A stretch of 64,000 nucleotides of DNA from a virus: positions 122,865-186,864 of IMG/VR virus record IMGVR_UViG_3300049793_000366; one strand, written 5' to 3'. Position numbers and translations under genes: made by a program. Positions 4,601 through 42,911 of this stretch are shown here, one piece after another; position 1 is the stretch's first letter, and each line of letters starts with the position of its first letter. The notes below the pieces were generated by a model. It saw only the letters and a program-made list of their open reading frames with translations. It was not told the DNA's origin and did no database searches.

Positions 4601-5080
4601 ATGAAGCATCTTAAACGTTTTAATGAAGCCATTGAGAAATTTAAGTATTCAAAAAAGGATATAGAAGACGCATATAAGTTTGTAAATGTTTATGCAAGGT
4701 CTGCTAGATTTGAACCAGAGTTCGATGCTGAAACTTACTATTACGATAAGATAGGAACACCAAATTCATTTACATATTTAGAAAAGAATCAGAAAACATC
4801 GGGTGGTGGTAAGGTTAAATCTGCTAATATAGTGGCTTATGATAAAAAAGGTAAATTGGTTGGGTTATTAAGTATTTCATTAACTGAACCAGTTGGAGCA
4901 TTTAAAATCGTAGTAGCCGAAGATTCTGCCCGAAAAGGATGGGGATTAAAACTATTAGATGAAGCAGAAAAAAGAGGGTTTGATATGGTTAACTATATGA
5001 AAAACAATACGTTCACTCACTCCGGAAGACGCTTATGCGAAAAATGGTTGGAAATAAAATTAGAAAAATTTGAACTTTAG
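4601..5080 (+). CDS. hypothetical protein, possible GNAT-fold acetyltransferase
   Basis: SARKGWGLKLLDEAEKRG resembles GNAT motif A (R/Q-x-x-G-x-G/A). This is a weak call. Stop is TAG followed immediately by TAA. Confidence 0.4.
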   Translation: MKHLKRFNEAIEKFKYSKKDIEDAYKFVNVYARSARFEPEFDAETYYYDKIGTPNSFTYLEKNQKTSGGGKVKSANIVAYDKKGKLVGLLSISLTEPVGAFKIVVAEDSARKGWGLKLLDEAEKRGFDMVNYMKNNTFTHSGRRLCEKWLEIKLEKFEL

Positions 5081-5183
5081 TAAATTTTTTACTATATTTG
5101 TATTATGATTACAACAATGAACACAAACTTACTCCTATTAGCAGACTCATAAACGTGCCTGACTGATAAACTATTATATCTAC

Positions 5184-5216
5184 CCTTGGCACCAAAAATG
5201 TCAAGGGTTTTTTATT
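5184..5216 (+). terminator. rho-independent terminator
   Basis: CCCTTG...CAAGGG hairpin followed by TTTTTT. Confidence 0.55.
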
Positions 5217-5238
5217 TTAAAAATTAATTATACAAACA

Positions 5239-6504
5239 ATGAAAGAAGAAAAATATATCGCAGTAATGTTTCCTTACCCATCTGGTAGCGGATTGCACAT
5301 AGGTCACTTTTATAACTATGCTATAATCGATTCATATTGTCGTTATTGGCGATATAAGGGAGTTAATGTATTTCAGCCATTTGGTTATGATTCATTTGGC
5401 TTGCCTGCTGAGAATTACGCGAAGAAAGTAGGTCGAGATCCTAAAGATGTTACATATGAAAACATCGAGAGGTTCAGAGCGCAAATGGATAAGATGGACA
5501 CTCAATATGAAGAGAAGTTGATAACATCTGACCCTTCTTACCAGAAATGGACTCAGTGGTTGTTCACTAAATTGAAAGAACACGGTTTGGTTTATAAAGC
5601 TAAAGGGGATGTGAATTACTGCCCTTCTTGTGAGACAGTATTGGCTCGTGAACAGGTTAAGAATGATAAGTGTGATAGATGTTCATCTGTTGTTGAAACC
5701 AGAAGCTTGGAGCAGTGGTATTTTAAGATAACTGCTTATAAAGACCGTTTGATTAAAAACTTGGATAAGATTGATTATCCACAAAGTACGATTAATGCTC
5801 AAAGAGCTTGGTTGGAGAATTTGCACGATTGGTGTGTTTCAAGACAACGTAGTTGGGGTTGCCCTATTCCAATAGAGGGTGAAACTGATACATTGGACAC
5901 ATTTGTAGATTCATCATTCTATTATATCAGATATTGCGACCCATATAATGACAACGAAATTTGTGCTAAAGATAAGTACAAACAAGTTGATGTTTATGTA
6001 GGTGGTAATGAACACGCTTGTATGCATTTGATTTACGCGAGGTTCATCAATATGTTCTTGTATGATATTGGTGTTGTCTCAGAAGAAGAACCATTTAAAA
6101 GAGTAATACATCAAGGTATGATTTTGAACAATGGTGCTAAAATGGCTAAATCGACTGGTAATGTTATTAATCCAGATGATTATAACTCTGATGAATTGAA
6201 ATTTTATTTGATGTTCATTGGTCACTATTTCGATGGTGGTTCTTGGTCTGACCAAAACATATCTGGTATTAAACGCTTTGTCAATAGATTTAAAGAATGG
6301 ATGTCGAGAGAGGGTGATGAAACGATTGACTTGGTTAAGTTTAAAGAAACTGTATTTGGTTATACAGAAGCTTTTAAATTCAATAAGGTTGTTAGTGAAT
6401 TCATGGTGTTGGTAAATCAGAACAGAACTAAAAATATCACAAAGGAATGTAAGAAGGAGATTGTTGATATTATTAAGATTTATATGCCATCAATAGAGGT
6501 ATAA
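5239..6504 (+). CDS. leuS: leucyl-tRNA synthetase-like protein, minimised (catalytic core only; no CP1 editing domain, truncated C-terminus)
   Basis: HIGH motif (FPYPSGSGLHIGHFYNY) and KMSKS variant (AKMAKSTGN). N-terminal ~220 aa are colinear with E. coli LeuRS (QPFGYDSFGLPAE, KITAYKDRL). The sequence then passes directly to CVSRQRSWGCPIPI where CP1 normally inserts. Only 421 aa. Confidence 0.8.
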   Translation: MKEEKYIAVMFPYPSGSGLHIGHFYNYAIIDSYCRYWRYKGVNVFQPFGYDSFGLPAENYAKKVGRDPKDVTYENIERFRAQMDKMDTQYEEKLITSDPSYQKWTQWLFTKLKEHGLVYKAKGDVNYCPSCETVLAREQVKNDKCDRCSSVVETRSLEQWYFKITAYKDRLIKNLDKIDYPQSTINAQRAWLENLHDWCVSRQRSWGCPIPIEGETDTLDTFVDSSFYYIRYCDPYNDNEICAKDKYKQVDVYVGGNEHACMHLIYARFINMFLYDIGVVSEEEPFKRVIHQGMILNNGAKMAKSTGNVINPDDYNSDELKFYLMFIGHYFDGGSWSDQNISGIKRFVNRFKEWMSREGDETIDLVKFKETVFGYTEAFKFNKVVSEFMVLVNQNRTKNITKECKKEIVDIIKIYMPSIEV

Positions 6505-6535
6505 GAAAAAACCCACTCAATTGAGTGGGTTTTTA
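6505..6535. terminator. bidirectional rho-independent terminator
   Basis: A-run, then CCCACTCAA-TTGAGTGGG hairpin, then TTTTT, between convergent genes. Confidence 0.6.
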
Positions 6536-6536
6536 A

Positions 6537-6722
6537 TTAAGCTTCAGTTTTCTTAGCCTGTACATCATTTCTAACTTCTTTAAGAAGTTTGATTATGTCT
6601 TGAGCTTGTTTCCTTACTCGTGTTCCAGCGGCTTTATTACCTTTAATAAAAGTCTTTTCATAGTCTTCTTTTAATGAAGATACAAGTTCAACAAGCTTGT
6701 CGTACTTATCTAAGTTATCCAT
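6537..6722 (-). CDS. histone H1-like small basic DNA-binding protein (Bacteroidetes type)
   Basis: 61 aa. KGNKAAGTRVRKQAQDIIKLLKEVR matches the conserved core of Bacteroidetes histone H1-like proteins. Confidence 0.45.
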   Translation of the reverse strand: MDNLDKYDKLVELVSSLKEDYEKTFIKGNKAAGTRVRKQAQDIIKLLKEVRNDVQAKKTEA

Positions 6723-6777: not shown

Positions 6778-7617
6778 TTAATAGTAATTAACAACTAAAA
6801 TTTCTTGCGAATCACCAACGTTTTTGCGTCTTGCTACTTTTTCGTAGTCATAACTAAGGTTCATTACAGTGTATTTCGATAATCTTTCCATAAAAGGATT
6901 TGGTACACCTTTGTGTATTGAAACACCACTAAAGGCGAATCTGATACCTCGTGCGTCTAAATCATCAATTGTGTCGTATAGTTGATTCTCTAATTCCTTT
7001 GACCAGAAAGCATTATAACCAGCTTCCGTTCCAATATAAGGTGGGTCAAAATAAACAAAGTCATTCTTTTTTGGCGGGTTTATAGCCAAGAGGTCAACAA
7101 ATGATAAATTGGTGAATTCAATATTTTTAGTGCTAAGTGCGTGACAGTATTTACGAATTTTTTGTATAGTGCTTTCATTGATGGCTCTTTTCCCCCATGT
7201 CTGGTTGAATTCAAATTTTTTATTAAATCGCATAAGATTATTTGTACAAGAAGAAACCAACGAGAAAAATTGATACGGATCTTTAGTCTGATTGAATTCT
7301 GCCCTTAATTTAACGAATTCTTCTTGTGAGTCTTTATCGATTTTAGATTCTAATATTTTCAATATTTCATCTTCAACAGTTTTTGTTTGTCCTGCCCTTT
7401 GTAGATTAATATAGAATTCTATTAGTGGTGTGATGATATCATTTGCTATAACCTTGTCGTAGCAACAATTTATACTAACGGCTAAACCACCAGCAAATAA
7501 ATCATAGAATTTATCAACCCCATTTGGATGAGGAAAGATAGTTAATAACTGGTTCATAAGTCTATCTTTAGAACCAGTATAATTTGTAGGTGGCTTAAGA
7601 AATCCTTGACTTATCAT
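6778..7617 (-). CDS. dam: DNA adenine methyltransferase (Dam-like N6-MTase)
   Basis: SAM motif YDLFAGGLAVS (FxGxG) and catalytic DPPY (FVYFDPPYIG). Confidence 0.8.
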   Translation of the reverse strand: MISQGFLKPPTNYTGSKDRLMNQLLTIFPHPNGVDKFYDLFAGGLAVSINCCYDKVIANDIITPLIEFYINLQRAGQTKTVEDEILKILESKIDKDSQEEFVKLRAEFNQTKDPYQFFSLVSSCTNNLMRFNKKFEFNQTWGKRAINESTIQKIRKYCHALSTKNIEFTNLSFVDLLAINPPKKNDFVYFDPPYIGTEAGYNAFWSKELENQLYDTIDDLDARGIRFAFSGVSIHKGVPNPFMERLSKYTVMNLSYDYEKVARRKNVGDSQEILVVNYY

Positions 7618-11110: not shown

Positions 11111-14100
11111 TTAGTAGTTGAAAATAAAATCATAACCACCATTATCTTCGAGCCATTGTTCCAGCTCTTCTCGATTCAAGTCTCTGAGCTGTCTACCATC
11201 GGACGTTTTAATCTCAAATATAAAGTCATAATTTGATCCGAGTGAATTATTCTCACCCTCGTCACCAGTAAGCACTAATTTATCAAAGTCAATATCAGCG
11301 ATGTTACTGCTTTCTGGACCAGTATCAGTCATACCACCACTCAATACTTGCATAATTTCCTCTAATGTCATGTCATCCTGGTGTTTCTTACACAATTTTA
11401 TATGTGGTGCTTTTAATATAGCAGCTAATCCCAGTAATGCCCATACAAAGTCAATAAATCCGTTAATTATGGCTTCAATTAAACATAATATGGCATTCAA
11501 GAAGTATAGTGGTTGTTTTAACAACGTTTTAAACTGTGCTTTATTCACTTTGAATAGCTTAGGTATAAACACGATGTCAATAACTTCACTCAAGTCGAAA
11601 ATATAATCATCTGGTAAGTTCTTAAGGTCTTTAACCCATCCTGTAAATTTAGGAATATCGAATTTAATACCAATAAGAGCCAATAGATTCATAGGGTCGA
11701 AAAATTCCATAATCCATTTAAAGCTTAAGAATTCTTTTAATTTACTGACTAAGTTACCAGGATTAAGCTCCTTAAAGAAGTTCATTATATACTCAATAAT
11801 ACCAAAGATAATTTTCAATGGTGTTGTAATTAAGCTTAATAATAAATTAAATAATGGGTGTGGATAGATAGAGAATTTCTTTCTAAGTTTATCGATTTTA
11901 TCTCTTATTAATTTATTACCTCTATCTTTCTTTTGTGCTTCTTCATATAAATCAAGAGCTTGTTGAGCCATATTAGGGTCATCTGGATTGTTGTTTATTA
12001 AATCATCAGCTTGTTTAACCATTGTAGCTATTTCCTCTGATAGATAAGTATATTCATAGTCAATACCATCAACAAATTTACCAGTTGAATACCATTCGGT
12101 TATAACGTCATCGTAGTGTAAACCATTTATGTCAGCACTATATTGTTGTGAACCATTTATACTAGTAGCTTGAGCATTATTATTTGCGTTTGTACCCGCT
12201 TCTTTTATACCGGCTAAATCTTTTAGGTTATCATTTATGAATTTATCAAAAGCGTCCACATCTGGATCTTTTAGTAGTTTAAATATCAAAGTCAACGGTG
12301 GTTTTTTATCGAATAACGCGAATAATTCCCACTTAATACCAAATACAACAGATAAGAATTTAACAGCCGCAGAACCATCCCAAATGAATTTTGGAACACC
12401 AGTTTCAGGATGTATATGAATCCAGTTACTTGCTGGTGTACTCTTAATTTTATTAGTTAAGTCTTTGATATATTTCTCTTTCTGCTTAATATTACCAGCT
12501 AAGTCAGCTTGTTTTATTTTAGCAACATATGTTGGTATCGCTTTAACAGCTTTCTTAAATTCTGGTCCAAATATTTCAAAGTTTTCACCCAATTTCTCTG
12601 TTAGAATATCAAATAAGAAACTAGCGGGATTCTTTATTAAATCCATTAACTGCTTAATCTTAGGAATAAGCTTAGTCATTATATCTGATAAAATAGATAA
12701 GAAAACCTTAACGCCACCAATAGCGTGTGGTCTTTTATACCACATTGGACTTCCACCGCCTCCACCGCCACCTTGATTACCACCACCTGTACTTGGTTCA
12801 CCAGGATTAGCTTCCGGTAAAACTGCTTCTATTAAATAGATTGTTTCTAAGTCATCTTCGTTTGTAGGATATCTGAATATTTGAAATGGGTTTGGTTCTC
12901 CATACCCAGGTGTTTTTAATTCGGATGGTGCGGATGGTATCGCAAACTTAGAAGTAGCATAAGGATCCCCAACTTTAAGAAAGTTATTTGTAACTTGATT
13001 ACCAGCTATAATTTGACCAGAAGGAATATCTGCTGTTACTCTTATTGCATTAACTGGTAAATCACTAATATTTGTTGTTATCGTGGGTGTTTGTATATTA
13101 TTTATACTGACAACTTTTCTCTTATTCATAAGAGGTGATATTGGCCCCTTGTATGATTGCCATTTGACGATAGTATTAGAATCGGTGTAGAATGTGAATC
13201 CATTTGCTGTGTGATTCATATTAGGAACACCAACTTCACTTAATGTAGTTGTTACATATGTTTTCTTAACAGTATCACCTTGTGTTAATTTATAGTTGTT
13301 GAGTGTTACTGAATTGTTTTGATTTAAAGTAGCAACAGTCCAATTAGCTGATACAGTACCCCATGTTGATGGTTTTGTGTTAGTAGTTGTTCCATCATCA
13401 AAATAATATGTGATGACTTTACCGATACTTGAACCAGAACCAACTTTAATAGTTGTAACAGTTTTACCGCTAACTAGTGGTGTTGATAATTGTGCAACTG
13501 AATATGTACCACCAGATACATCTTGTTCTGCTGATGGTGAACCACCAGTTAAGTCATACTTTCTATATTCCCAGTTATCACCGATTTTTTTAATTTCATT
13601 AAATCTTAATCCATCATAGAAACTAAATTGTGTAAAGTCTGATGGTGCTGTTCTTGCCCATACATCAATATTAAAGGTTTTGTCATAATCAAGATTTCTC
13701 TGAAAGTTTAACCCAATATTATCATAAGATACGGAAGTAACATTATACGATGATTGTGTTGCTACTTCTGGGAATGTTTTATATTTTTCAAATAACGTTA
13801 TATCAAATGGTTTGTTATCAGACATTGATATATCATGTGAGTTATGTACAAATCTTAATATTGTAGCTGATTTCTCTGGTGTATTTTGTAAAGTATCATA
13901 AGTAATATTAAATGTAGTATCTACTTTTATAATTCTCATCTCATAATCACCTTCTGGGTCAATCAATAGTGGTTTACCGCCTATTACTTTTTCAACTGGC
14001 ATGAATGGTTGCTTAGGTACTTTTCCTAAGTTGTATTGTGATATTATATTACCAGGAATCCCAGGTAAAAACCCACCAGTTGATATAGCATCTAATTGTT

Positions 14101-15484
14101 TTTCAGATTCAGATGCATCAAATTTAGATAGTACAAAAGACCTTGCTTCTGCCTTTCTTGAAGGGAAATCGCTCACTACTTTGTTTCTAACTAACTTATC
14201 AAAATTAGTATCAGGCTTCGCCGCATCTACTTTTAGATTAACGAATTTATGTATGAAGTTTTTATACTCAACGATTTGACTACCTGTGAAATATTTCTCA
14301 TAGTTACCACCTGGATTCTCTGGGTCATCAGGCATATCATCACCATTGTCATCTTTCTTCTTTACTCTCTCCCAAGAACGAGGGTCATTTTCATATTTAG
14401 GTCCAGGATAATTTATACTAGATTCTCTATCACCCCAGTTTGATTTCCACCACCACACTGTTGGTCCCACAAAGCCGAATTGCCCGTACCATTTACCACT
14501 TTGTTCTAACCAAGATGGAGCCGCCATTGGCGAACCGTTAGAGTCAAATACTGCTAATACAATATTTTCAGGAAAGTCTTCTGTTGGATTGTCTTCATCT
14601 AATCCTAAGTCACCGTCTCCTACAACACCATCTAAATCTTCGAGACTTATACCACCTAAAAATTGAACAATATCATGATATGTTGTTTCATAATCTATAC
14701 CGTTTAATTTCTTACCAGTGGAATATACCTCTGATATAGTTTCATACTCCGCTTCATAGCCAGTGGTATCTACTGCACCATTTTGTGTTGATGGTAATTC
14801 GTCATTTAGTGATTCATCACCACCAGTTCCGGTATTGTTAGTGTTATTAGCATTACCAGCAGAGCTTGGAATACCACCCTTGACTTGTAAGTTTGATAAC
14901 TTACTTAATTTCTCTTGTAATAGAGATTTATCATAGTTAATCGCTCTTGGGTTTTTCTTTGGTCTAAGTCCTTTTGGTTTTGCTGGGTTTGTATAATCCA
15001 ATGGCACCGAAAGTCTTGCCGCACAATCTTCTAATTTAGCAAGAATACCAACGAAAATTTTAACAATTTCCATATATGGTTTTTGCGATTCAAATATGGC
15101 TTTAATAGCTGTCTTCTCAAGAGCTTTTAACCCCATGAAGTTATCAGCAGAAGTAAGAGAAATATCTCCTTCTGGTACAGAAATTTTACCGTTTGATTTA
15201 ACGTAAGATTTAGGATCCTTAGCCATCTTAGAGTTACTAACACTTTCGAAAATCTTAAGTGATTCTAAGCTTGGTGGTTTAGCCATACCTCTGGCTACCA
15301 TTTGCTTCTTAAGTGTATCAGCGATTCCAAGTTCACCGTTTGCGAACTTAACCAAATATGAAATATCTGGAATTAATAGAATAGGCTTACTTTTATCCTT
15401 ACCATCTGATGGCGGACCTGTAATTGCTTGTGTAAGCGGTAATGGTATTTTCGGTTGTAACGGTAAGTGAAATTCTATTGGCAT
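11111..15484 (-). CDS. giant virion-associated protein (1457 aa), possibly tape-measure or internal/ejected protein
   Basis: Very long ORF with hydrophobic helical segments near the C-terminus and a poly-Gly linker (GGGNQGGGGGGGS). No catalytic motif recognised. Confidence 0.55.
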   Translation of the reverse strand: MPIEFHLPLQPKIPLPLTQAITGPPSDGKDKSKPILLIPDISYLVKFANGELGIADTLKKQMVARGMAKPPSLESLKIFESVSNSKMAKDPKSYVKSNGKISVPEGDISLTSADNFMGLKALEKTAIKAIFESQKPYMEIVKIFVGILAKLEDCAARLSVPLDYTNPAKPKGLRPKKNPRAINYDKSLLQEKLSKLSNLQVKGGIPSSAGNANNTNNTGTGGDESLNDELPSTQNGAVDTTGYEAEYETISEVYSTGKKLNGIDYETTYHDIVQFLGGISLEDLDGVVGDGDLGLDEDNPTEDFPENIVLAVFDSNGSPMAAPSWLEQSGKWYGQFGFVGPTVWWWKSNWGDRESSINYPGPKYENDPRSWERVKKKDDNGDDMPDDPENPGGNYEKYFTGSQIVEYKNFIHKFVNLKVDAAKPDTNFDKLVRNKVVSDFPSRKAEARSFVLSKFDASESEKQLDAISTGGFLPGIPGNIISQYNLGKVPKQPFMPVEKVIGGKPLLIDPEGDYEMRIIKVDTTFNITYDTLQNTPEKSATILRFVHNSHDISMSDNKPFDITLFEKYKTFPEVATQSSYNVTSVSYDNIGLNFQRNLDYDKTFNIDVWARTAPSDFTQFSFYDGLRFNEIKKIGDNWEYRKYDLTGGSPSAEQDVSGGTYSVAQLSTPLVSGKTVTTIKVGSGSSIGKVITYYFDDGTTTNTKPSTWGTVSANWTVATLNQNNSVTLNNYKLTQGDTVKKTYVTTTLSEVGVPNMNHTANGFTFYTDSNTIVKWQSYKGPISPLMNKRKVVSINNIQTPTITTNISDLPVNAIRVTADIPSGQIIAGNQVTNNFLKVGDPYATSKFAIPSAPSELKTPGYGEPNPFQIFRYPTNEDDLETIYLIEAVLPEANPGEPSTGGGNQGGGGGGGSPMWYKRPHAIGGVKVFLSILSDIMTKLIPKIKQLMDLIKNPASFLFDILTEKLGENFEIFGPEFKKAVKAIPTYVAKIKQADLAGNIKQKEKYIKDLTNKIKSTPASNWIHIHPETGVPKFIWDGSAAVKFLSVVFGIKWELFALFDKKPPLTLIFKLLKDPDVDAFDKFINDNLKDLAGIKEAGTNANNNAQATSINGSQQYSADINGLHYDDVITEWYSTGKFVDGIDYEYTYLSEEIATMVKQADDLINNNPDDPNMAQQALDLYEEAQKKDRGNKLIRDKIDKLRKKFSIYPHPLFNLLLSLITTPLKIIFGIIEYIMNFFKELNPGNLVSKLKEFLSFKWIMEFFDPMNLLALIGIKFDIPKFTGWVKDLKNLPDDYIFDLSEVIDIVFIPKLFKVNKAQFKTLLKQPLYFLNAILCLIEAIINGFIDFVWALLGLAAILKAPHIKLCKKHQDDMTLEEIMQVLSGGMTDTGPESSNIADIDFDKLVLTGDEGENNSLGSNYDFIFEIKTSDGRQLRDLNREELEQWLEDNGGYDFIFNY

Positions 15485-31046: not shown

Positions 31047-32969
31047 ATGCACAGTATCTTAGATTTTATGAGCAATTATTGGTGGATTGGAGCTATTTTA
31101 TTAGCACTGGTTGCCTACAAATTAATTTTCCGTTTATTCGGTATCGTTATGATACCTGAGGATAAAATTGGATTAGTTACAAAGAAGTTTGTTTTACTTG
31201 GCGCGGATAAATCATTACCCGATGGTAGGATTATCGCAACTAAAGGTGAAGCAGGTTTTCAAGCAAAAGCAATGGCACCGGGTATTTATTTCTGGATGTG
31301 GCCATGGCAATATGAAATCGATATGCAAGGTTTCGTATTAATTCCTGAGGGTAAAATTGGTTTAGTGGCTGCGAGAGACGGTGTTGTACCTCAAAATGGT
31401 AGAATACTTGGTCGTAAAGTATCTTGTGATAACTTCCAAGATAGTGAGCAGTTCTTAACTAATGGTGGACAGAAAGGTCGTCAGTCGGCATATCTTGTTG
31501 CTGGTTCTTACCGTATCAATACACACTTATTTGAAGTGTCTGTTGTTGACCAGGTTAAGATTAATGAGAACATGGTGGGTATTGTTACTACTCTTGATGG
31601 TGAGCCTCTTGATGATGGACAAATCGCTGCTAAAGTAAATGAAGCAGGGCATAATAAGTTCCAAAACTTTGATGTGTTTCTTGAGAATGGTGGACAAAGA
31701 GGTTTACAACAAGACGTAATTCTTGCTGGTACTTATAACATCAATCCTTGGGCTGTTCAGATTGAAGAAGTTCCAATGACAAGTATCGCAATTGGATTTG
31801 TTGGTGTTGTTATCTCTTATGTAGGTAGCGAAGGACAAGATGTATCTGGTACTGCTTTCAAACATGGTAACATCGTTAGTAAAGGACAGAAGGGTGTTTG
31901 GAATGAACCATTAGGTCCAGGAAAATATCCTATCAATACATATGCTTATCGCATTGAAGTTGTTCCAACAACAAACCTTGTATTAAACTGGGCAAGCGCG
32001 AGAACTGAATCACACAACTTAGATAAGAACTTAAGTACTATCACAGTACGTTCTAAAGATGGTTTCCCATTCAATTTAGATGTGTCTCAAATTATTCACA
32101 TTCCAATGACAGAAGCACCTAAAGTAATTGCGCGATTTGGTGCTATGCAAAACTTAGTTTCTCAAGTACTTGAGCCAACTATTGGTAACTATTTCCGTAA
32201 CTCTGCTCAAGATTCAGATGTAATCTCTTTCTTAAGCTCTCGTAAAGAGCGTCAGGAGTCTGCTAAACAGCATATCTCTAAAGTTCTTGAAGAGTATAAC
32301 GTTCACGCTGTTGATACGCTTATAGGTGATATTACACCTCCTGAGTCACTTATGAAAACTCTTACTGACCGTAAGATTGCTGAAGAGCAAAAAGTAACAT
32401 ATGAAACTCAGCGTAAAGCACAAATCGAGCGTCAATCTTACGAGAAAGAAAATGCTGTTGCTGATATGCAAAAGGATGTAGTTAAAGCTGACCAGTCAGT
32501 ATTAATTGCTGATAAAACTGCTCAAGCTTCTATTAAGCAAGCAGAAGGTAATGCTAAGTCAGTAGAGCTTAACGCTAATGCTGATGCGAATGCTACTAAA
32601 TTACGTGCTGGTGCCGAAGCAGAAAGAATTACCTTAACTGGTAATGCCGAAGCAGAAAGAACATTAGCGATTGGTAAGTCTAACGCAGAAGCTTATAAAC
32701 TTGCTGTTGAAGCAATGGGTGAAGAAAACTTTACTCGCCTTAAAGTAACAGAAGCTATTGGTATTAATAAAGTACAGGTAATTCCTAACGTACTTATCAA
32801 TGGTGGTGGTAACGGAAGCGGTTCATTAGAAGGTATGATGAGCCTTCAAATGATGGAAATGATGAGCGAAAAGGGTTACTTAAATAAAAAAGACATCAAG
32901 GATGTCAAAGAAGTAACATCTAAAGCTGTTGTTGAAGAGAAAGCAGAAGACGACAAGAAGAAGAAGTAA
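31047..32969 (+). CDS. flotillin-like SPFH/band-7 domain membrane protein
   Basis: N-terminal TM helix WWIGAILLALVAYKLIF. Central SPFH-like region. C-terminal Ala/Glu-rich coiled coil (AEAERITLTGNAEAERTLAIGKSNAEAYKLA) ending in GGGNGSG, as in YqiK/flotillin. Confidence 0.6.
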   Translation: MHSILDFMSNYWWIGAILLALVAYKLIFRLFGIVMIPEDKIGLVTKKFVLLGADKSLPDGRIIATKGEAGFQAKAMAPGIYFWMWPWQYEIDMQGFVLIPEGKIGLVAARDGVVPQNGRILGRKVSCDNFQDSEQFLTNGGQKGRQSAYLVAGSYRINTHLFEVSVVDQVKINENMVGIVTTLDGEPLDDGQIAAKVNEAGHNKFQNFDVFLENGGQRGLQQDVILAGTYNINPWAVQIEEVPMTSIAIGFVGVVISYVGSEGQDVSGTAFKHGNIVSKGQKGVWNEPLGPGKYPINTYAYRIEVVPTTNLVLNWASARTESHNLDKNLSTITVRSKDGFPFNLDVSQIIHIPMTEAPKVIARFGAMQNLVSQVLEPTIGNYFRNSAQDSDVISFLSSRKERQESAKQHISKVLEEYNVHAVDTLIGDITPPESLMKTLTDRKIAEEQKVTYETQRKAQIERQSYEKENAVADMQKDVVKADQSVLIADKTAQASIKQAEGNAKSVELNANADANATKLRAGAEAERITLTGNAEAERTLAIGKSNAEAYKLAVEAMGEENFTRLKVTEAIGINKVQVIPNVLINGGGNGSGSLEGMMSLQMMEMMSEKGYLNKKDIKDVKEVTSKAVVEEKAEDDKKKK

Positions 32970-33458: not shown

Positions 33459-34562
33459 TTATCCCATTGTTAAGAAGATTTTTCTGTTTAATCTATCAAC
33501 AGCAAGTACTTTAACTTGGATGTCTTGACCAGCAGAGAATTGTTTGGTGTTACTGAACTTTTCAACTTCTGATGTGTGAATTAAACCGATTGTCTCTTCG
33601 TCAAGGTTAACAAGAACACCAAATGCTTTGTTATCTTTAACTTTACCTTTGAACTTCTGTCCAACTTTGATACCATCCCAAAGTGATTCTTTTAGAATCT
33701 GGGTAAGAATAATCTTATCCTTGATGATTTCTTTTACGTAGAAGTCAACTGCTGTTCCAGCTTGAATTTGGTCAATTTTATCAGCCCATTCAGGATTGAT
33801 GTTTGATTTGTGAATCATACCAGTTAAACATTCGTTGAATTCGACGAACACACCGAATGGAGTAGTTCCAGTTACGTGTCCTGTGTAAACAGACTCAGCA
33901 TCTAACTTCTTAATCTCTTTTGGTATTAAAGATTGTAAGTATTTTTTGCGAGATACTATATACGTTCCTTTCTCGTCTGAAAAAGACTCCACCATAACGT
34001 TGAATGTTTTACCAACAATAACGCTTGGGTCATGTAGCTTGTTAACACCAGCTAAAGTGTTTGGCATGAATGCCGGGATTGTAACACCGTTGTATAGAAT
34101 ATCTAAATCATATCCAGCTGGGTTAAGTTCTTTAACTTTTGCTTCAACGAAGTCAGTAGATTCTAACGATTGTAACCCTAAGTGAATCGCTTGTTCATAA
34201 ATAGCTGAAATGCTACCTTTAATGAAGAATGGATTTTCTTGTTGGTCTGTTACTAACACGTCAATGTATTGACCATGTTTTAAATTTTGAGTATAAGAAA
34301 GTTCTTTCTTATTTGATTCAACACGAAGATAATCTTTATATCCAATATCGAATACTAAATATTCGTTGGTTGTTTCGATAAACTTTGCGTTGGTAATTTC
34401 ACCAGTCTTCGGCAAAACAAATTTGCCCAATTGGTAGAGCTTTAACATTTGCTCTGCATAAGGTTCAGTACAATAAAGTACATAACCGTCTTTTGTTTTT
34501 CTTGGTTTCTTAGACCACTCAAAAACATCTTTAAATTCTGCGTTTCCGTAGGTTTCTGTCAT
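33459..34562 (-). CDS. multi-S1-domain RNA-binding protein (ribosomal protein S1-like)
   Basis: C-terminal canonical S1 fold signature GKVKDNKAFGVLVNLDEETIGLIHTSEV...VKVLAVDRLNRKIFLT. Further S1-like repeats (GHVTGTTPFGVFVEFNECLTGMIHKS; GKTFNVMVESFSDEKGTYIVSRK). Confidence 0.6.
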   Translation of the reverse strand: MTETYGNAEFKDVFEWSKKPRKTKDGYVLYCTEPYAEQMLKLYQLGKFVLPKTGEITNAKFIETTNEYLVFDIGYKDYLRVESNKKELSYTQNLKHGQYIDVLVTDQQENPFFIKGSISAIYEQAIHLGLQSLESTDFVEAKVKELNPAGYDLDILYNGVTIPAFMPNTLAGVNKLHDPSVIVGKTFNVMVESFSDEKGTYIVSRKKYLQSLIPKEIKKLDAESVYTGHVTGTTPFGVFVEFNECLTGMIHKSNINPEWADKIDQIQAGTAVDFYVKEIIKDKIILTQILKESLWDGIKVGQKFKGKVKDNKAFGVLVNLDEETIGLIHTSEVEKFSNTKQFSAGQDIQVKVLAVDRLNRKIFLTMG

Positions 34563-35744: not shown

Positions 35745-38700
35745 TTATAAACTTTGATTAGTGTTGCTATTTGATTGTGCTATTTGATTGACAACACTTT
35801 TTTGTGTCGGATCAGCTTCATCACATTCTATATAGTATTTATTATCCCATGTGCTTTTGAATATAAAATAGTGTTTGAAGCCATAGCCATATTCATCAAT
35901 CATTGGATAGATAGATTTTAAATCCTTAGCATCCTTTAGTTTAAGTATATTCTTCTTTCTGTTTATTTTTGAGAATTTTCTCTCTTTCATAATACCGAAA
36001 TTAGATAAGCTTGTATCAAATTTGCAATTGTGGTTATCTACCTTATTGAATAGTTCGATATCATAGAATATAGGCATATAATATCCACTGAATCTATATA
36101 GACTCGTAGTTGTTAGATTTTTAAGCCCGTGAATATTATCAACTACTAAATTATCACCTTTGTGTTGGATTATATTTGTAGCTAATGGTATATCATTATA
36201 GTAGTTTAATTCATTAGTAGATTTAACTGTACCTTTGTCTAATAAGAATTTTGCTTTAATTAAATTTTTATTTGGTGATACGGGTTCAACCTTATATGAG
36301 TTCAACTTCGTGGTTACTTGGTCTGGTGCTTCTGCTAATAATATAACAGGTAAATTAGTCCAATTGTATGATTGTGTTGCACCATCGATGTAGTATTTAA
36401 TCGTATCGCTGAATCCATACTTCTCACTCACATTATTCATATAGTTGATGAAGTTATTAGCAGTAAGTTTTGAGAATAATTCATTATATAAATCATCCCT
36501 CTCCTTATTCTTAATAGAAGTATAGGTGTTGTCATTTATGTAGATATGAAGAAGAATTTCCTTATTCTTGTTGTTTATATACATATTGATACCATTCTCT
36601 AATGTTGAGTTAGAAGTAGGTGATGTACAATAGTAATATCTACTATTGAATTTAATAATATTATTATTCGTTATACTATATGGTAGTGTTGTATCATCAA
36701 CCAATGAGTATTCACGAGTCCAAGATGCATTAGTTCCTGGTTCATCAAGATACGAACCAACTAACCTCCATAATATATCATTATGAACAGCGTATTTACC
36801 ATTCAATGCTACAATTGCTGGTGGTGTTATTTTACTCCATAATATTACCTTGTTCCATTTAAGTGTAGATGTCGGTAATGTATTATCTACTCTCCAAGAT
36901 TTAGATGTGAGTGGATAAGAACGGTTTGTCGATTTAAGTGACCTATAATATTCACCATTGAATATAATATATTCATTAGCATTGTAGTTTTGCTTTGGAT
37001 TCCAGAAGCTAACTGTACCAGCACTATATGAATAGTAATCACCGTGGTGATATACTGCGCTATCATAAACCACTGTTGGTGATAATGTATAAGTCTTGGT
37101 TGGATTCCATAATATAGATGTTATACCACTTATAGTTCCCCAAGATACCGTACCATTTGTATATCCAACATCTGTTGTTAATAGTGGTGTGAATAATGAT
37201 TGTGGTCCAACGGTTGTAGTAAGTGTTGAATTATTAAGTGTTGGGCTACCTGGATATACAGACATATTTGTTAGTGTATATGGTGTAGAACCTACGTAGA
37301 CGAATACAATGTCATTAAATATAAACTTCTCACCGAATGTGTATTCTTCTTCTTGATTAAACTGTGAGAATGTTTCCCATGTTAATTCATTCTTTATTGG
37401 AAATACAGACCCAGTTGCCGAATCAGCCATTAGTACGGAGAATTTATATCCTTCGTAATCATTTGTTGATTTAGTTATGATTGAATCAATAGACCCATTT
37501 TTAATAATTAGCTTATCAACATCATATAGATAAAACTTAATACCCTTAAATACTGTGTGATTAGTTATGACTGAATCCTTTGCGTTAAATCTTGAATACT
37601 TTTTAGTATTTCTAATAGTAGAACCACTATCTAATATTTCCTTCTTATCAAATAGAGAAGCGAAATAAGATATCGTACCAGAGTATGTACCTTGATATGC
37701 CCATGTAGCCGCAGTAGCAGCTATTCCAGTGAAGAATAAATCAGGATTAAATGTAAAAGAATCTATGTTTTTATTACTATCTAATATCTGTACGTGTAAA
37801 CTTTGCTCAACATAAGATGTTGTTGATGAATTTATTGTATAGAAATAATCTAAATTATTTTCCATACGTATAGGTCTTGTTTCATATACATTAGCAACCC
37901 TATTAAAGTCATCAGCTATAAATGAATTATTCAAACGATATTCCTCATCAAAATGAGAGTTTGAATGTTGATATCCCCATTTTGTTGACGTGATATTCTT
38001 TCTCCATAGTGAGTTAAGTTCATTATTGTGAACTTCAAATAACTCACCAGTAGCGATGTATTCAGATGATGTTGGTATATGTACTAATTCTTTATTAAAT
38101 ACATACTCACTAAGTCTTTGTGGGTACTCAAGTGAATCTATATCCTTAGAATATAATTTTAATTGTTGTGTATCGGTAAGTGAATCTGATTTTTCATATT
38201 CAAATTTCGAAAAGTTTGTATCAATGATAGATGTTTCAAAATCCTTAATATCAGAAAAGTAAACCTTGTATATTTTAAATACTGGTGGTTGATGGTCTTT
38301 ATCGATAATTAATGGTATAACCGTTTTATAAGCTGGGTCACCCTCGTTTATATAATATTCGAATGTTAATTCAGTAGATTTGAATCCATAATCAGATTGT
38401 ATGTGTAGAGATCCATTACTATCAACTCTTATTACGTGCCATTTATCATCTATCTCAATGACAAATAAATCACAGTTCTTAGCTTCGTTTATAAATTTAT
38501 TATAACTAGCTTGATTATTAACGAAAGTTAGTATGTTGCTTGAATCAACATTTATAATATTAGCATCTATTATACCTTCTAATCCAGATAAATCTAAATC
38601 AGATATAATTCTGTAATTTACAACGTTTAATAGTTGTAATTCATCAGTAGCTAAACCTTTTCTTGACTTAGTTCTTTTGTTTAATCTACGTGTATTTGTG

Positions 38701-39707
38701 AATTTCTCTACCTTATAAAAGATACCATTTATTTCAACATATGTATTCTCTGTCCACCCACCTACGAATGGATCTCCACCCTCTGACTCACTTATTATAT
38801 TACCCGCCGTGATAACTGTACCAGTTACTAATTTCTGAGCTTTATATGGTGACACTGAAAGAAATTCTTCTAATTTTTCAATATAAAATCCGAAGTATCT
38901 GTTTATTGACCATTTTCTTAAAGCCTTTGGTGTAGCTGGTGTATCATTGAATAAGAAACTAAAGTTTACTATATTTGGAAATACAACTTTATTGTTTCTA
39001 TAACCATCTGTGATAAGCGACTCGAATGAATGAAATGTTTGCTCAGTAGATATAGTCTCATCTAAGAAAAAAGACTTAGAACAATATCCACCTGATTCAT
39101 ATTCAATACCATTCCACTTAGAGAATTCTAAAGTTCTCCAATCTATTTCAAATGGTGCTGTTGGAAATGATGCATCGTCAACGAAGTTTCTTTTAATCCA
39201 TTCACCAACATTTGTTTTAGGAGTTAAGTCGAAAACAGTGACACATTTAAACTTATCTAATATCTCTGTCTTGAAATTATCCTTAGTTAAGTTTATAATA
39301 CCAGGACCATCTACTCTGAAAATAATGAAATTTTCCGGAATAGAAGACGGGTCTATATACAAAGGCGCAAAGCATTCAAATTCTTCTTGATAGAATGTAT
39401 CAGAGATATACTTACATCCCATTTGATATATGTCATCAAACTGATGCTCGAACGTGTTAAACATTTTATCGGCATCGTCTTCATATTTAACTTTGAAGGC
39501 AACATCAGCGGGTGTGTTCTTGTAAAAAAACGGAACCAATTCATTAAAGAAGTTATCCTTATTGAATAGTACGTGTTTATATTTAGAAGCACATAGTTCA
39601 GGACTTGATTCAATTGATTCTAAGTATAATGAATAACTTGCTGTTACTATTACTTTAGCATTTGTTGAAAGTGCTGGGTTTGCTCTAATTACCGAAAATG
39701 ATTTCAT
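35745..39707 (-). CDS. giant structural protein (1320 aa), putative tail or baseplate component
   Basis: Very long ORF rich in Asn/Ser/Thr/Tyr, beta-rich. No enzymatic motif recognised. Confidence 0.55.
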   Translation of the reverse strand: MKSFSVIRANPALSTNAKVIVTASYSLYLESIESSPELCASKYKHVLFNKDNFFNELVPFFYKNTPADVAFKVKYEDDADKMFNTFEHQFDDIYQMGCKYISDTFYQEEFECFAPLYIDPSSIPENFIIFRVDGPGIINLTKDNFKTEILDKFKCVTVFDLTPKTNVGEWIKRNFVDDASFPTAPFEIDWRTLEFSKWNGIEYESGGYCSKSFFLDETISTEQTFHSFESLITDGYRNNKVVFPNIVNFSFLFNDTPATPKALRKWSINRYFGFYIEKLEEFLSVSPYKAQKLVTGTVITAGNIISESEGGDPFVGGWTENTYVEINGIFYKVEKFTNTRRLNKRTKSRKGLATDELQLLNVVNYRIISDLDLSGLEGIIDANIINVDSSNILTFVNNQASYNKFINEAKNCDLFVIEIDDKWHVIRVDSNGSLHIQSDYGFKSTELTFEYYINEGDPAYKTVIPLIIDKDHQPPVFKIYKVYFSDIKDFETSIIDTNFSKFEYEKSDSLTDTQQLKLYSKDIDSLEYPQRLSEYVFNKELVHIPTSSEYIATGELFEVHNNELNSLWRKNITSTKWGYQHSNSHFDEEYRLNNSFIADDFNRVANVYETRPIRMENNLDYFYTINSSTTSYVEQSLHVQILDSNKNIDSFTFNPDLFFTGIAATAATWAYQGTYSGTISYFASLFDKKEILDSGSTIRNTKKYSRFNAKDSVITNHTVFKGIKFYLYDVDKLIIKNGSIDSIITKSTNDYEGYKFSVLMADSATGSVFPIKNELTWETFSQFNQEEEYTFGEKFIFNDIVFVYVGSTPYTLTNMSVYPGSPTLNNSTLTTTVGPQSLFTPLLTTDVGYTNGTVSWGTISGITSILWNPTKTYTLSPTVVYDSAVYHHGDYYSYSAGTVSFWNPKQNYNANEYIIFNGEYYRSLKSTNRSYPLTSKSWRVDNTLPTSTLKWNKVILWSKITPPAIVALNGKYAVHNDILWRLVGSYLDEPGTNASWTREYSLVDDTTLPYSITNNNIIKFNSRYYYCTSPTSNSTLENGINMYINNKNKEILLHIYINDNTYTSIKNKERDDLYNELFSKLTANNFINYMNNVSEKYGFSDTIKYYIDGATQSYNWTNLPVILLAEAPDQVTTKLNSYKVEPVSPNKNLIKAKFLLDKGTVKSTNELNYYNDIPLATNIIQHKGDNLVVDNIHGLKNLTTTSLYRFSGYYMPIFYDIELFNKVDNHNCKFDTSLSNFGIMKERKFSKINRKKNILKLKDAKDLKSIYPMIDEYGYGFKHYFIFKSTWDNKYYIECDEADPTQKSVVNQIAQSNSNTNQSL

Positions 39708-39710
39708 TTA

Positions 39711-42700: not shown

Positions 42701-42911
42701 TGTTTAATCTATCAATTTCGGACTTTAAAAATCCAATGGTTGGTAGGTTAAATTGTCTCAAAACGCCATTCTCATCAGTTATTTTTACACTGATTGAGTT
42801 TTCTGTTGTTGTTACTAAATCGTTTAGTTTAGATAGTAATTCTACCGCATTGCGGTTATAACTTATGATTTGTTCTGCTACGGTTGTAAAGGAATTTCTT
42901 ATTGTTGACAT
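39711..42911 (-). CDS. giant structural protein (1066 aa), putative tail or baseplate component
   Basis: Very long ORF with a central coiled-coil segment (QKQKESKLSLQSSLVKD). No enzymatic motif recognised. Confidence 0.55.
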   Translation of the reverse strand: MSTIRNSFTTVAEQIISYNRNAVELLSKLNDLVTTTENSISVKITDENGVLRQFNLPTIGFLKSEIDRLNNNINTLYSIDSAGSIIQPANNKFKKIITADLNREPATIGSLNVVSSFVTNKNWIFDGLLNPMLNIIIDLNGKIENNVRKCQVRRYIVEFAKDDAGNLTNLGQSALNSFNTLFRGQTAIKIDEFDRWHRTTPGITSPNEPNYDEQIFDLDPNELLYNGLFTVIKVEQDTLNRKLWYHLDTIDYLVTGTNEIRQLAHGDEVIVNVDISTTRYKVVEVSTLASNFRVRFERVEGLQPIAVGIGTLKVYSPVVFNKNVKISVGYDERNVVFVKPLNADNHLLAKDWSLGTGYWTNDLRLNSEDPNNGKSMEQFYTENVYDYGEVLKDLVAKKIPNQLAGTPPAPTLNADNFKVVQINKHLTDTPNGNLIKTKHNEQKNLKSEIQQISDSLIAKNKQIKVTRFTSDAQRKQFELEVDKLQKQKESKLSLQSSLVKDILDISKTTSIGKQSPKFSIRGFWTIPDAIITRGTKPQEIVQFRIQYKYTTKDGKEPTTTTFKLKPVKNGENIKTGAFSNWKEIKTDARKRIQDPKTKQYSWTIEDVSDADTPNINQLDIPISPNERVEIRIKSISEVGWPESPVESDWSQIISLDFPDDLNDVMADDQFILKEATQEELKVRMQSELDARGLSTILDGITVVGNKTYVTSSDSILSGFKDDNGTAIDLHGYLKSLQDRVIALEEKIKRAKGELVITMFRNNQPFVIKNNSEITFNVECEDYLDTFSDTGVPTGRVYQNNIYVIKDFLLKIENKSVESPLGLLSSRIYNTSTELYNTAAPQIFWVNELNQLLFSNTTGKTLTQKNNQFAWSVNYSTIEDTSTVTKLADNIGNAFTTNANNSIVPALASTEYNIGYSETTLLSFNNSNTSLLETSKWVENSVSVSSTTKLLTTIHPVVQDLDKLVETNSDKVHTVPGGPNNAINIPINIYFKMNSLDPNAGTGNNYKYIVLNNVTQTVKHIKKLKFFLENEAENRPFTFTIKFNLSRNKVAVQKNLSNLPTGQNISL

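Follow-up and report, generated by a model that had tools for sequence, protein, structure and literature searches.

To our knowledge, the smallest leucyl-tRNA synthetase (LeuRS) characterised so far is that of Mycoplasma mobile, which has 637 aa and keeps the C-terminal domain (CTD). The M. mobile enzyme has neither CP1 nor the leucine-specific domain, yet it charges tRNA-Leu, and it mischarges isoleucine (PMC3643597). Removal of CP1 is tolerated for aminoacylation (PMC3643597, PMC3561953), and deletion of the CTD abolishes aminoacylation in the LeuRS of T. thermophilus and E. coli (PMC3561953). In the urzymes of about 130 aa, the anticodon-binding domain has been dropped too (10.1101/2025.04.05.647346, PMC10450160). 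In phages, synthetases have been reported in general (Al-Shayeb et al. 2020), and the main text of that report does not mention a minimal LeuRS architecture. Our full-text search of the literature, which covered part of the journals, did not bring to light any account of a truncated LeuRS in phages or of its link to tRNA, and a search of similarly partial journal coverage found no report of a short-arm tRNA-Leu in phages. The databases already annotate genes of the kind described here as ‘leucyl-tRNA synthetase’.

The window (the whole 64-kb stretch of DNA analysed here) comes from a huge phage of a Mahaphage-type clade, and the host of the phage is probably a member of the Bacteroidota. Virion and baseplate proteins were matched in the window (PHROGs), several ORFs of more than 1000 aa had no family match, and the first 25 kb had no nucleotide similarity to known phages. 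A recoded genetic code was rejected, since ORFs of 100 aa or more already cover 90.5% under the standard code, TAG as a sense codon adds little, and the LeuRS gene itself ends with TAA. The closest relative is found in a complete, curated phage genome of 634.8 kb (LR745206.1), and the flanks of the gene are syntenic with a 709-kb NCBI contig. The LeuRS ORF has 421 codons before its stop codon and starts with ATG. Because its stop-to-stop frame opens at 5221, only 6 codons before the ATG, no N-terminal extension is possible. The features of the locus are as follows.

5182..5218, plus strand: terminator-like hairpin and T run at the end of the upstream gene (stem 5182-5208, 10 pairs, then TTTTTATTTT)
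5239..6504, plus strand: coding sequence of a minimal bacterial-type LeuRS of 421 aa, TAA stop included in the coordinates (profiles, PDB alignment, AF2, Foldseek, dN/dS)
5296..5307, plus strand: HIGH, residues 20-23, class I ATP-binding signature (HxGH in 121 of 121 family members)
5620..5682, plus strand: zinc knuckle of the ZN domain, CPSC 128-131 and CDRC 145-148 (conserved cysteines)
5815..5823, plus strand: CP1 junction, W191-L-E-N194 / L195-H-D-W198, where full-length relatives carry a CP1 of about 215 aa (alignments)
5872..5880, plus strand: second junction, PIPI212 / E213-G-E(TDT), where an insert of about 55 aa is missing (alignments)
6139..6153, plus strand: KMAKS, residues 301-305, KMSKS catalytic loop (sequence)
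6250..6501, plus strand: the portion of the anticodon-binding helical bundle that has been kept (helices predicted at 338-356, 366-377, 381-395 and 402-412)
6509..6534, no strand assigned: hairpin with an A run on one side and a T run on the other (z-score -6.29 at -20.1 kcal/mol; 200 shuffles gave no equally good fold)

The first hairpin stands between the LeuRS gene and the ORF directly upstream (4601-5080), which has a weak GNAT-like match. The second hairpin lies just 3’ of the LeuRS stop codon, with a convergent Hc1-like gene beyond it (6537-6722, minus strand), and is probably a two-way terminator. The window and LR745206.1 have no gene neighbours of the LeuRS gene in common, so the GNAT-like ORF is not a conserved partner. 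There are no tRNA genes in the 64-kb window, and the LeuRS gene here has no tRNA neighbour; a tRNA(CUA) is located just outside the window.

By family and fold, the window protein is a bacterial LeuRS. TIGR00396 (leuS_bact) was the top profile with 392.9 bits, as compared with 150.6 bits for valS, 148.1 for ileS and 143.3 for metG. The match was split into four stretches, and its score falls under the full-length (equivalog) cut-off of 548.4 because of the deletions in the protein. The PDB sequence matches to LeuRS had E-values of 1e-87 to 1e-68, and those to MetRS were 1e-26 or weaker; the Pfam model tRNA-synt_1g (a MetRS model) covers residues 6-340 in one stretch (E = 1.7e-40). The AF2 model of the 421-aa protein is a confident, compact fold (pLDDT 90.9, pTM 0.89), and the best 50 Foldseek matches in the PDB were all bacterial LeuRS, with M. 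mobile LeuRS (3ziu) first at a TM of 0.89-0.90. Thus, a preliminary description of this DNA was right to read the ORF as a LeuRS catalytic core with CP1 deleted, and the motifs quoted there (HIGH at 20-23, QPFGYDSFGLPAE, KITAYKDRL, AWLENLHDWCVSRQRSWGCPIPI and KMAKS at 301-305) are all present. A fragment of a different class I synthetase was ruled out by the profile scores (about 150 bits for valS, ileS and metG), the PDB alignments and the Foldseek search.

Alignment with T. thermophilus LeuRS (1h3n) falls into four blocks, in which residues 4-193 of the phage protein correspond to Tt 34-224, 194-212 to Tt 418-436, 208-296 to Tt 487-578, and 300-358 to Tt 636-698. Absent from the phage protein are the N-terminal 30 aa or so, all of CP1, the insert of about 55 aa after SRQRxWG, the last helix of the anticodon-binding domain, and the CTD. 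The leucine-specific domain is also gone, as QGMILNNGA runs straight into KMAKS. The direct CP1-less junction is likewise found in P0121, P0125, P0127 and P0132. In T. thermophilus, the missing 55-aa insert corresponds to Tt 437-486 and carries the second CxxC pair of that enzyme. Full-length LeuRS retains it, as do a 508-aa phage form and P0125, P0127, P0132 and P0157.

Each deletion leaves the reading frame intact, and the junctions are clean in the alignment with relatives. When all six frames of the window were searched with nine full-length or longer LeuRS (tblastn) and with full-length, CP1 and CTD profiles (hmmsearch), LeuRS sequence was found only at 5230-6495 in one frame, and no other LeuRS parts were found in the window. 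The CTD profile found nothing in the window (best E = 0.9) or among all ORFs of LR745206.1 (best E = 0.25). No free-standing CP1 was found in either, the sole CP1 match being the phage IleRS’s own CP1. On the 1h3n alignment, the jump over CP1 falls exactly where the preliminary description had placed it, and it is not the product of a frameshift, as CP1 and the CTD are encoded neither in an adjacent frame nor elsewhere in the window. The ATG start reported there is present, and the ORF lies between a terminator-like hairpin (5182-5208) and a probable terminator (6509..6534). Of the C-terminal loss claimed, the absence of the CTD stands; the absence of most of the anticodon-binding domain does not, since only its last helix is missing. 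The suggestion that the enzyme is ‘anticodon-blind’ describes no special trait, because the anticodon is not read by bacterial LeuRS in any case (PMC9976931). Two deletions had been overlooked, the one of about 30 aa at the N-terminus and the one of about 55 aa at PIPI212/E213GETDT.

The E. coli LeuRS binds Leu-AMP with Y43, H52, D80, E532 and H533 (PMC13454842). The window equivalents of these five (Y13, H23, D51, E258 and H259) are invariant across the mini and full-length LeuRS, and E. coli L41 corresponds to F11, which is conserved in the mini family and is Phe in T. thermophilus too. HxGH and KMxK[ST] are found in 100% of the 120 cluster representatives of the family; among the 121 family members the KMSKS loop occurs as KMSKS (86), KMAKS (17), KMSKT (12), KMGKS (4) and KMAKT (2). 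In the ZN domain, the family alignment shows conservation of the cysteines and of E138, Q139, V140 and R147, and the LAREQV segment, flanked by the zinc knuckle, is the counterpart of the residues with which the E. coli enzyme holds bases 74-75 of the tRNA in the transfer step. The helical bundle has a pLDDT of 94-97 over most of its length in the AF2 model and contains a conserved FKFNKVVS..M...N block. The alignment with P0128 (835 aa) reaches residue 744 of that protein. The end of the window protein aligns with the ..LAPLAPHL of P0128, at the point from which the bundle would continue with its last helix and the CTD would follow. Since the ZN and helical domains are not needed merely for making Leu-AMP, we count their retention in favour of tRNA charging.

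The short form is widespread. It was found in at least 120 sequence clusters of 407-442 aa, in IMG/VR viral contigs and in contigs of up to 780 kb, and the related phages in which the preliminary description had proposed to look for the same truncation do carry it, on 36 IMG/VR viral contigs from independent samples. The dN/dS between the window gene and its LR745206.1 orthologue was 0.09, indicating purifying selection. LR745206.1 has no second, canonical LeuRS; it also encodes a CP1-less ValRS (443 aa) and a MetRS core (470 aa).

Among the IMG/VR relatives, tRNA-Leu accounts for 32 of the 121 tRNAs within 10 kb of the LeuRS gene, as compared with 5 of 59 in a whole genome (binomial P = 4.7e-9, counted over loci of related phages that are not phylogenetically independent). 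About a third of the tRNA-Leu near the gene have short variable loops. At 6 of 11 loci the nearest tRNA is tRNA-Leu, and in two of these it precedes the gene, on the same strand, by only about 20 bp. A second phage LeuRS family without CP1 and CTD (508 aa) is encoded directly behind arrays of 5-7 tRNA-Leu genes, which were confirmed by Rfam. The unusual tRNA-Leu of the phages are 74-77 nt long, with a short variable loop and A73, and long-arm tRNA-Leu are present as well. LR745206.1, for example, has a short tRNA-Leu at 389081-389156 and a long-arm one at 389249-389340. As far as we know, tRNA-Leu without the long arm is otherwise a feature of animal mitochondria. Given its linkage to tRNA-Leu genes of the phages, the enzyme would more plausibly do ordinary charging of the phage’s own tRNA-Leu than rescue host tRNA-Leu, a role that the preliminary description had considered beside mischarging and a non-canonical function.

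We propose that the window gene probably encodes a working, naturally minimised and editing-deficient LeuRS with which a huge phage charges its own tRNA-Leu. The Rossmann core (HIGH and KMSKS) with its leucine/AMP pocket would make leucyl-adenylate, the ZN domain would clamp C74-C75 so that leucine is passed to the tRNA 3’ end, and the compact helical anticodon-binding domain could lean on the inner side of the tRNA. With CP1 lost there would be no post-transfer proofreading, and with the CTD lost the usual grip on the tRNA elbow would be gone. During infection, the enzyme would charge the phage’s long-arm tRNA-Leu and the 74-77-nt type with a short variable loop, which would meet the Leu-tRNA demand of a phage coding sequence that is rich in Leu and dominated by TTA. 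We infer a loss of fidelity for the window LeuRS; accuracy may then depend solely on its synthetic site, unless the host LeuRS removes the errors in trans.

The 421-aa protein very likely activates leucine, and it likely charges tRNA-Leu. The main doubt on charging arises because CTD deletion kills charging in model bacterial LeuRS, and we know of no natural CTD-less LeuRS with demonstrated activity. Further points count against the proposal. The tRNA 3’ end in the transfer complex of E. coli is gripped by the editing domain (residues 286-298) and the leucine-specific domain as well (PMC13454842), and both are absent from the phage protein; absent, too, is the nonapeptide that replaces CP1 in M. 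mobile. The window gene itself has no tRNA beside it, and the linkage counts come from related phages that are not independent in phylogeny. More tentatively, the LeuRS without CP1 and CTD and the tRNA-Leu with a short variable loop may form a co-evolved, phage-private leucylation system, in which recognition would proceed without an elbow-binding CTD; we regard this as possible, though doubtful.

The loss of charging in CTD-deleted model bacterial LeuRS (PMC3561953) would also fit a synthetase-like paralogue that only activates leucine or binds tRNA-Leu and serves as a leucyl donor, sensor or regulator in the manner of Sulfolobus LeuRS-I. In LeuRS-I, CP1 is disrupted and the C-terminus divergent, and the protein makes Leu-AMP and binds tRNA-Leu with no aminoacylation (PMC9437257). 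The weak GNAT-like ORF directly upstream in the window is compatible with such a role; however, it is behind a terminator and is not conserved in LR745206.1. The ZN and anticodon-binding domains have been retained under selection, and tight same-strand linkage to multi-isoacceptor tRNA-Leu arrays is seen in two independent families. The same phage clade has a parallel CP1-less ValRS, and LR745206.1 has no canonical LeuRS beside the short one (the host supplies one). On this evidence, we consider a non-charging paralogue rather unlikely.

The LeuRS of Aquifex aeolicus is split into alpha and beta. The phage enzyme might similarly charge tRNA only with a partner in trans, either a separate tRNA-binding subunit or a host protein that replaces the CTD, CP1 or both. 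The CTD matters greatly in model enzymes, and huge phages encode many uncharacterised proteins, among them the window ORFs of more than 1000 aa. However, the profiles found no free-standing CP1 or CTD in the window or in the complete LR745206.1, a search that a partner unlike the CTD would escape, and the neighbours of the gene are not conserved between the two. A trans partner thus has only a small chance of being the explanation. A decaying fragment or an assembly or frameshift artefact, which half the normal length and a score below the NCBIfam full-length cut-off might suggest, is highly improbable and for practical purposes refuted by the recurrence of the architecture in independent samples (at least 120 clusters, 36 viral contigs), the dN/dS of 0.09, the in-frame deletions with clean junctions, the missing parts being in no other frame, the confident compact predicted fold, and the gene’s own terminators.

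If the 421-aa protein is a working charging enzyme, a large family of 407-442 aa under strong selection and without CP1 and CTD would show that both modules are dispensable in nature, and the family offers a direct test of the minimum protein for a class Ia synthetase. A private leucylation system, if true, would mark how small a class Ia synthetase can naturally be and still work, and it may show partial orthogonality to the LeuRS/tRNA-Leu pair of the host. Taken with the CP1-less ValRS found in the clade, such a system would imply a proofreading-free minimal synthetase set in huge phages. The compact scaffold of the family, with its own unusual tRNAs, could be of use in translation engineering. 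The family also raises the question of whether lower translational fidelity is tolerated or exploited by huge phages, and why they have leucine tRNAs without the long arm.

Among known systems, M. mobile LeuRS (3ziu, 637 aa) is like the phage protein in being bacterial-type, without CP1 and without the leucine-specific domain. No other structure matches the phage protein better, and by sequence it ranks third among the PDB matches; the linker between QGMIL and KMSKS has four residues in both (GKDG in M. mobile, NNGA in the phage protein). However, the phage protein is 216 aa shorter and lacks the KEEIDGKIT nonapeptide at the CP1 site, an insert of about 50 aa (Mm 262-313), the N-terminal helix, the last anticodon-binding helix and the CTD. 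Indeed, the alignment to 3ziu ends at Mm residue 467 of 637, and the TM normalised by target length is 0.61-0.67. The M. mobile enzyme is the product of the cell’s only leuS gene, whereas the short form is phage-encoded.

The 508-547-aa huge-phage family (LR756501 and relatives) has the same CP1-less W-x-x-x / L-x-D-W junction as the window protein and no leucine-specific domain. It too has no CTD and goes together with tRNA-Leu arrays, in which long and short types are mixed. Unlike the window protein, it keeps the insert of about 55 aa with CxxC pairs. The identity is only 34%, and among cellular enzymes the family is nearest to Campylobacterota LeuRS. The metagenomic forms of 569-650 aa (P0125, P0127, P0132 and P0157) share the CP1-less junction and the absence of the leucine-specific domain, but keep the CTD (..R[IV][IVL]NF[IV]). 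P0122 (530 aa, 56% identical) has a CP1 remnant of about 110 aa with the TTKPET and GTG..VP.DD.RD editing motifs.

The same modules are gone in engineered deletions, namely the CTD-less E. coli and T. thermophilus LeuRS, the E. coli LeuRS that carries the M. mobile linker in place of CP1, and the LeuAC urzymes. While the engineered CTD-less LeuRS does no charging (PMC3561953), the natural phage form is under strong purifying selection. The phage enzyme keeps the anticodon-binding domain that the urzymes have lost. The MetRS core is the simplest class Ia architecture, and its helical domain reads the anticodon. The monomeric MetRS core (about 500 aa) has the same domain order as the phage protein, with a Rossmann fold, a small zinc-knuckle insertion, KMSKS and a helical bundle. 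Anticodon reading by the helical domain is a feature of MetRS, and nothing here extends it to the phage protein, whose sequence and active-site pocket are those of LeuRS and not of MetRS.

The mini-LeuRS gene occupies window positions 5239-6504 on the plus strand, with 421 codons from an ATG to a TAA, and its frame opens just six codons 5' of the ATG. No Shine-Dalgarno sequence was visible 5' of that ATG, as is usual in Bacteroidota and their phages. A hairpin stands on either side of the gene:

5182-5218, plus strand: terminator-like hairpin with a T run, upstream of the mini-LeuRS gene
6509-6534: strong hairpin between A and T runs (-20.1 kcal/mol, z = -6.3), between the mini-LeuRS gene and the convergent gene of an Hc1 histone-like protein

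Because of the ATG/TAA frame and these two hairpins, the gene is a self-contained unit, as the preliminary description had claimed. Directly 5' of it, a 159-aa ORF (4601-5080, plus strand) weakly matches GNAT acetyltransferases (E = 2.4e-4); the ORF at this position in a 709-kb relative is shorter (119 aa), and no counterpart was found beside the LeuRS of LR745206.1, a curated 634.8-kb huge-phage genome. Immediately 3', on the opposite strand, lie the genes for the 61-aa Hc1 histone H1-like protein (6537-6722, minus strand; E = 4.7e-20) and then a D12-class N6-adenine DNA methyltransferase (6778-7617, minus strand).

In mini-LeuRS, Pfam found no domains other than those of class I synthetases. 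The NCBIfam profile of bacterial LeuRS, TIGR00396, reached 392.9 bits, and those of ValRS, IleRS and MetRS about 150 bits; the TIGR00396 match is under the full-length cut-off of 548.4 and split into four pieces. The best sequence matches among solved structures were Thermus thermophilus LeuRS (4.6e-87) and the naturally CP1-less Mycoplasma mobile LeuRS (3.9e-82). An AlphaFold2 model built from 60 homologues was confident (pLDDT 90.9, pTM 0.89), and the best 50 PDB matches of this predicted fold were all bacterial LeuRS, with M. mobile LeuRS at the top (TM-score 0.89-0.90, query-normalised). The profile lead and the matches of both sequence and model bear out the proposed LeuRS identity and rule out that the ORF is a piece of some other class I synthetase.

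The domain anatomy was determined by alignment with T. thermophilus and M. mobile LeuRS and by a ten-sequence alignment with longer relatives. Mini-LeuRS keeps MFPYPSG, HIGH (residues 20-23), GYDSFGLPAEN, the ZN domain with CPSC, CDRC and the LAREQV segment, the DW..SRQR.WG.PIP motif, ETDTLDTFVDSS.Y, GGNEHACMHLIYARF, QGMIL followed by KMAKS (301-305), and four helices of the anticodon-binding bundle with the conserved FKFNKVVS..M...N block. Missing are about 30 N-terminal residues, the whole CP1 editing domain (about 215 aa in relatives), an insert of about 55 aa between PIPI212 and E213GETDT, the final helix of the anticodon-binding bundle and the C-terminal tRNA-elbow-binding domain (CTD); the protein ends at the position of residue 744 in a relative of 835 aa. 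Mini-LeuRS has no leucine-specific domain either, which is no special feature since P0128 (835 aa) and P0346 (819 aa), the full-length proteins nearest to it, lack that domain too. The minimised, CP1-less phage LeuRS of the preliminary description is confirmed, and its main interpretation is supported in family, fold and the direct CP1 junction (N194|L195). The stated loss of most of the anticodon-binding domain is incorrect, as only the last of the bundle helices is gone.

When the window was searched in all frames with full-length LeuRS sequences, and with one profile each for CP1 and the CTD, no remaining LeuRS parts were found, in agreement with the earlier view that the gene is not split by a frameshift. 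An identical protein is encoded on a 185-kb Logan contig, and a 709-kb NCBI contig carries a syntenic copy (84% identical). A search of 5.8 billion proteins yielded at least 120 clusters with 72-84% identity, all of 407-442 aa and all with HxGH and KM[SAG]K[ST], and 36 IMG/VR viral contigs carry the gene at 57-82% identity, so the truncation is shared by relatives. The dN/dS against the LR745206.1 orthologue (82% identical) was 0.09. Taken together, these results exclude an artefact.

An exhaustive representative search and a second homologue search recovered further reduced forms. The nearest longer relative, the metagenomic protein P0122 (530 aa, 56% identical), has the same C-terminal end and a CP1 remnant of about 110 aa with TTKPET (Thr-rich) and GTG..VP.DD.RD (conserved Asp) motifs, which may represent a minimised editing domain. 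Huge phages also have a second, separate family (508-547 aa), found in the 735-kb genome LR756501, which has neither CP1 nor CTD and retains the 55-aa insert; some few proteins related to this family (645-647 aa) match a Pfam domain for CP1. Other forms, metagenomic and 569-650 aa long, have the CTD and no CP1. This graded series shows that CP1 and the CTD were each lost more than once.

The gene content points to a phage origin: PHROGs matches in the window include virion-structural or head-decoration proteins and a baseplate wedge protein, and an SLT transglycosylase and a Dam-type methylase are also encoded. The nearest mini-LeuRS relatives come from genomes whose depositors listed them as huge phages. 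Al-Shayeb et al. 2020 (PMC7162821) assign genomes above 634 kb to the 'Mahaphage' clade, with predicted Bacteroidetes hosts, and report as many as 15 synthetases and 67 tRNAs in one genome. The standard code suits the window (90.5% of bases within ORFs of at least 100 aa), and Leu makes up 8.3% of the codons of its ORFs, TTA being 52% of the Leu codons. Homologues of nicotinate phosphoribosyltransferase (48283-49482, plus strand) and ribose-phosphate pyrophosphokinase (60196-61209, minus strand) suggest phage-encoded NAD+ salvage. The window also encodes a 640-aa SPFH/Band 7 protein (31047-32969, plus strand), a 367-aa S1 RNA-binding-domain protein (33459-34562, minus strand) and three ORFs of 1066-1457 aa with no Pfam match (11111-15484 and 35745-42911, minus strand), one of which has the uncharacterised phrog_29329 as its sole match.

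The complete genome LR745206.1 has 59 tRNA genes, including five for tRNA-Leu, all with A73; three of the five are just 74-76 nt with a short variable loop, and the closest match of one short tRNA-Leu(UAA) is the 92-nt tRNA-Leu(UAA). Within 10 kb of the mini-LeuRS gene in 36 IMG/VR loci, tRNA-Leu was by far the commonest tRNA (32 of 121, against 5 of 59 genome-wide; binomial P = 4.7e-9), counts that are phylogenetically non-independent and come from loci whose tRNA orders differ. Leu was the nearest tRNA in 6 of 11 distinct tRNA-bearing loci, on the same strand as the gene in all, and ended about 20 bp 5' of the gene in two. Eleven of the 32 are 74-77 nt, and all but one have A73. The 508-aa family is likewise accompanied by tRNA-Leu arrays, each with five to seven genes and with both 83-87-nt and 73-75-nt forms, which stop 11-22 bp before the LeuRS gene in two loci and about 820 bp 5' of it, with one ORF between, in the 735-kb genome. 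The Rfam tRNA model scored the array tRNAs at 48-65 bits and aligned the short ones to the usual class I cloverleaf, their anticodons being those of Leu. The pattern fits known leucine identity, and human mitochondrial tRNA-Leu also lacks the long arm (PMC9976931). This linkage is the strongest available argument that mini-LeuRS acts on tRNA-Leu.

Short tRNA-Leu genes (73-77 nt; anticodons UAA, UAG, CAA; A73; short variable loop) recur in the clade's huge phages next to normal 81-92-nt tRNA-Leu, often as a long/short pair sharing one anticodon. To our knowledge, tRNA-Leu of bacteria and phages is otherwise class II. LR745206.1 also has long-variable-arm tRNAs (82-90 nt) with anticodons for Lys, Arg, Asn, Gln and Pro:

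LR745206.1 388229-390005 (= L012 45229-47005): short tRNA-Leu
L019, L021, L024, L040, L045, L001, L054, L055 (loci of related phages): short tRNA-Leu
LR745206.1 343293-343558, 388055-388144, 388398-388484, 407961-408042, 421470-421559: long-arm non-Leu tRNAs

Several tRNAs with an 8-nt anticodon loop were called tRNA-??? (gtag at LR745206.1 407364-407437; similar in L019, L020 and L040). The ORF between array and LeuRS gene in the 735-kb phage (L001 5219-5989, plus strand; 256 aa) has a GIY-YIG-like N-terminus as judged by eye (..FIYTL..KYIGKT..). The 64-kb window itself contains no tRNA. Just 5' of it on the same contig, 6-10 kb 5' of the mini-LeuRS gene, are a homologue of CCA-adding enzymes (PF01743), a 2H phosphoesterase (PF22547) and an amber-suppressor-type tRNA, anticodon CUA (L003 122-2108, 3528-3600).

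In E. coli LeuRS, Leu-AMP is bound by Y43, H52, D80, E532 and H533 (PMC13454842). The counterparts in mini-LeuRS (Y13, H23, D51, E258 and H259) are invariant across the mini family and full-length LeuRS; F11, at the position of E. coli L41, is conserved in the mini family, and T. thermophilus LeuRS has Phe there too. The retained ZN domain is the clamp on tRNA bases 74-75 in the transfer state, and M. mobile LeuRS, which has neither CP1 nor the leucine-specific domain, still charges tRNA, with Ile mischarging as the price (PMC3643597). Three points stand against charging: the LeuRS of T. thermophilus and of E. coli no longer aminoacylates once its CTD is deleted (PMC3561953), the editing domain adds contacts to the 3' end of tRNA in the transfer complex of E. 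coli, and the nonapeptide linker of M. mobile LeuRS is absent from mini-LeuRS. We propose that mini-LeuRS is probably a working LeuRS that would charge the phage's own tRNA-Leu set without post-transfer editing. The main rival, a non-charging paralogue that activates leucine or binds tRNA-Leu, like Sulfolobus LeuRS-I (PMC9437257), seems unlikely.

Still less probable is dependence on a partner in trans, which might have no similarity to the CTD. CP1 and CTD profiles found no free-standing copy of either domain in LR745206.1, which also has no second LeuRS. Its other synthetase genes are:

LR745206.1 382035-384251, plus strand: IleRS, 735 aa, CP1 kept
LR745206.1 34381-35829, minus strand: ValRS-like protein, 443 aa
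LR745206.1 32198-33619, minus strand: MetRS core, 470 aa

A weak ArgRS-like protein is encoded as well. The ValRS-like protein skips CP1, its residues 220-420 aligning to ValRS profile positions 454-662. With these further synthetases, minimisation is a trend of this phage clade rather than a quirk of a single gene.

The main text of Al-Shayeb et al. 2020 (PMC7162821) does not describe the truncated LeuRS form, and in the literature that could be searched, a conserved LeuRS family lacking both CP1 and the CTD and coupled to short-arm tRNA-Leu is undescribed. A natural CP1-less LeuRS is already known from M. mobile. Compared with that enzyme, the proteins of the mini family are shorter by about 215 aa and have lost the CTD besides CP1, and their genes are linked to those of short-arm tRNA-Leu.
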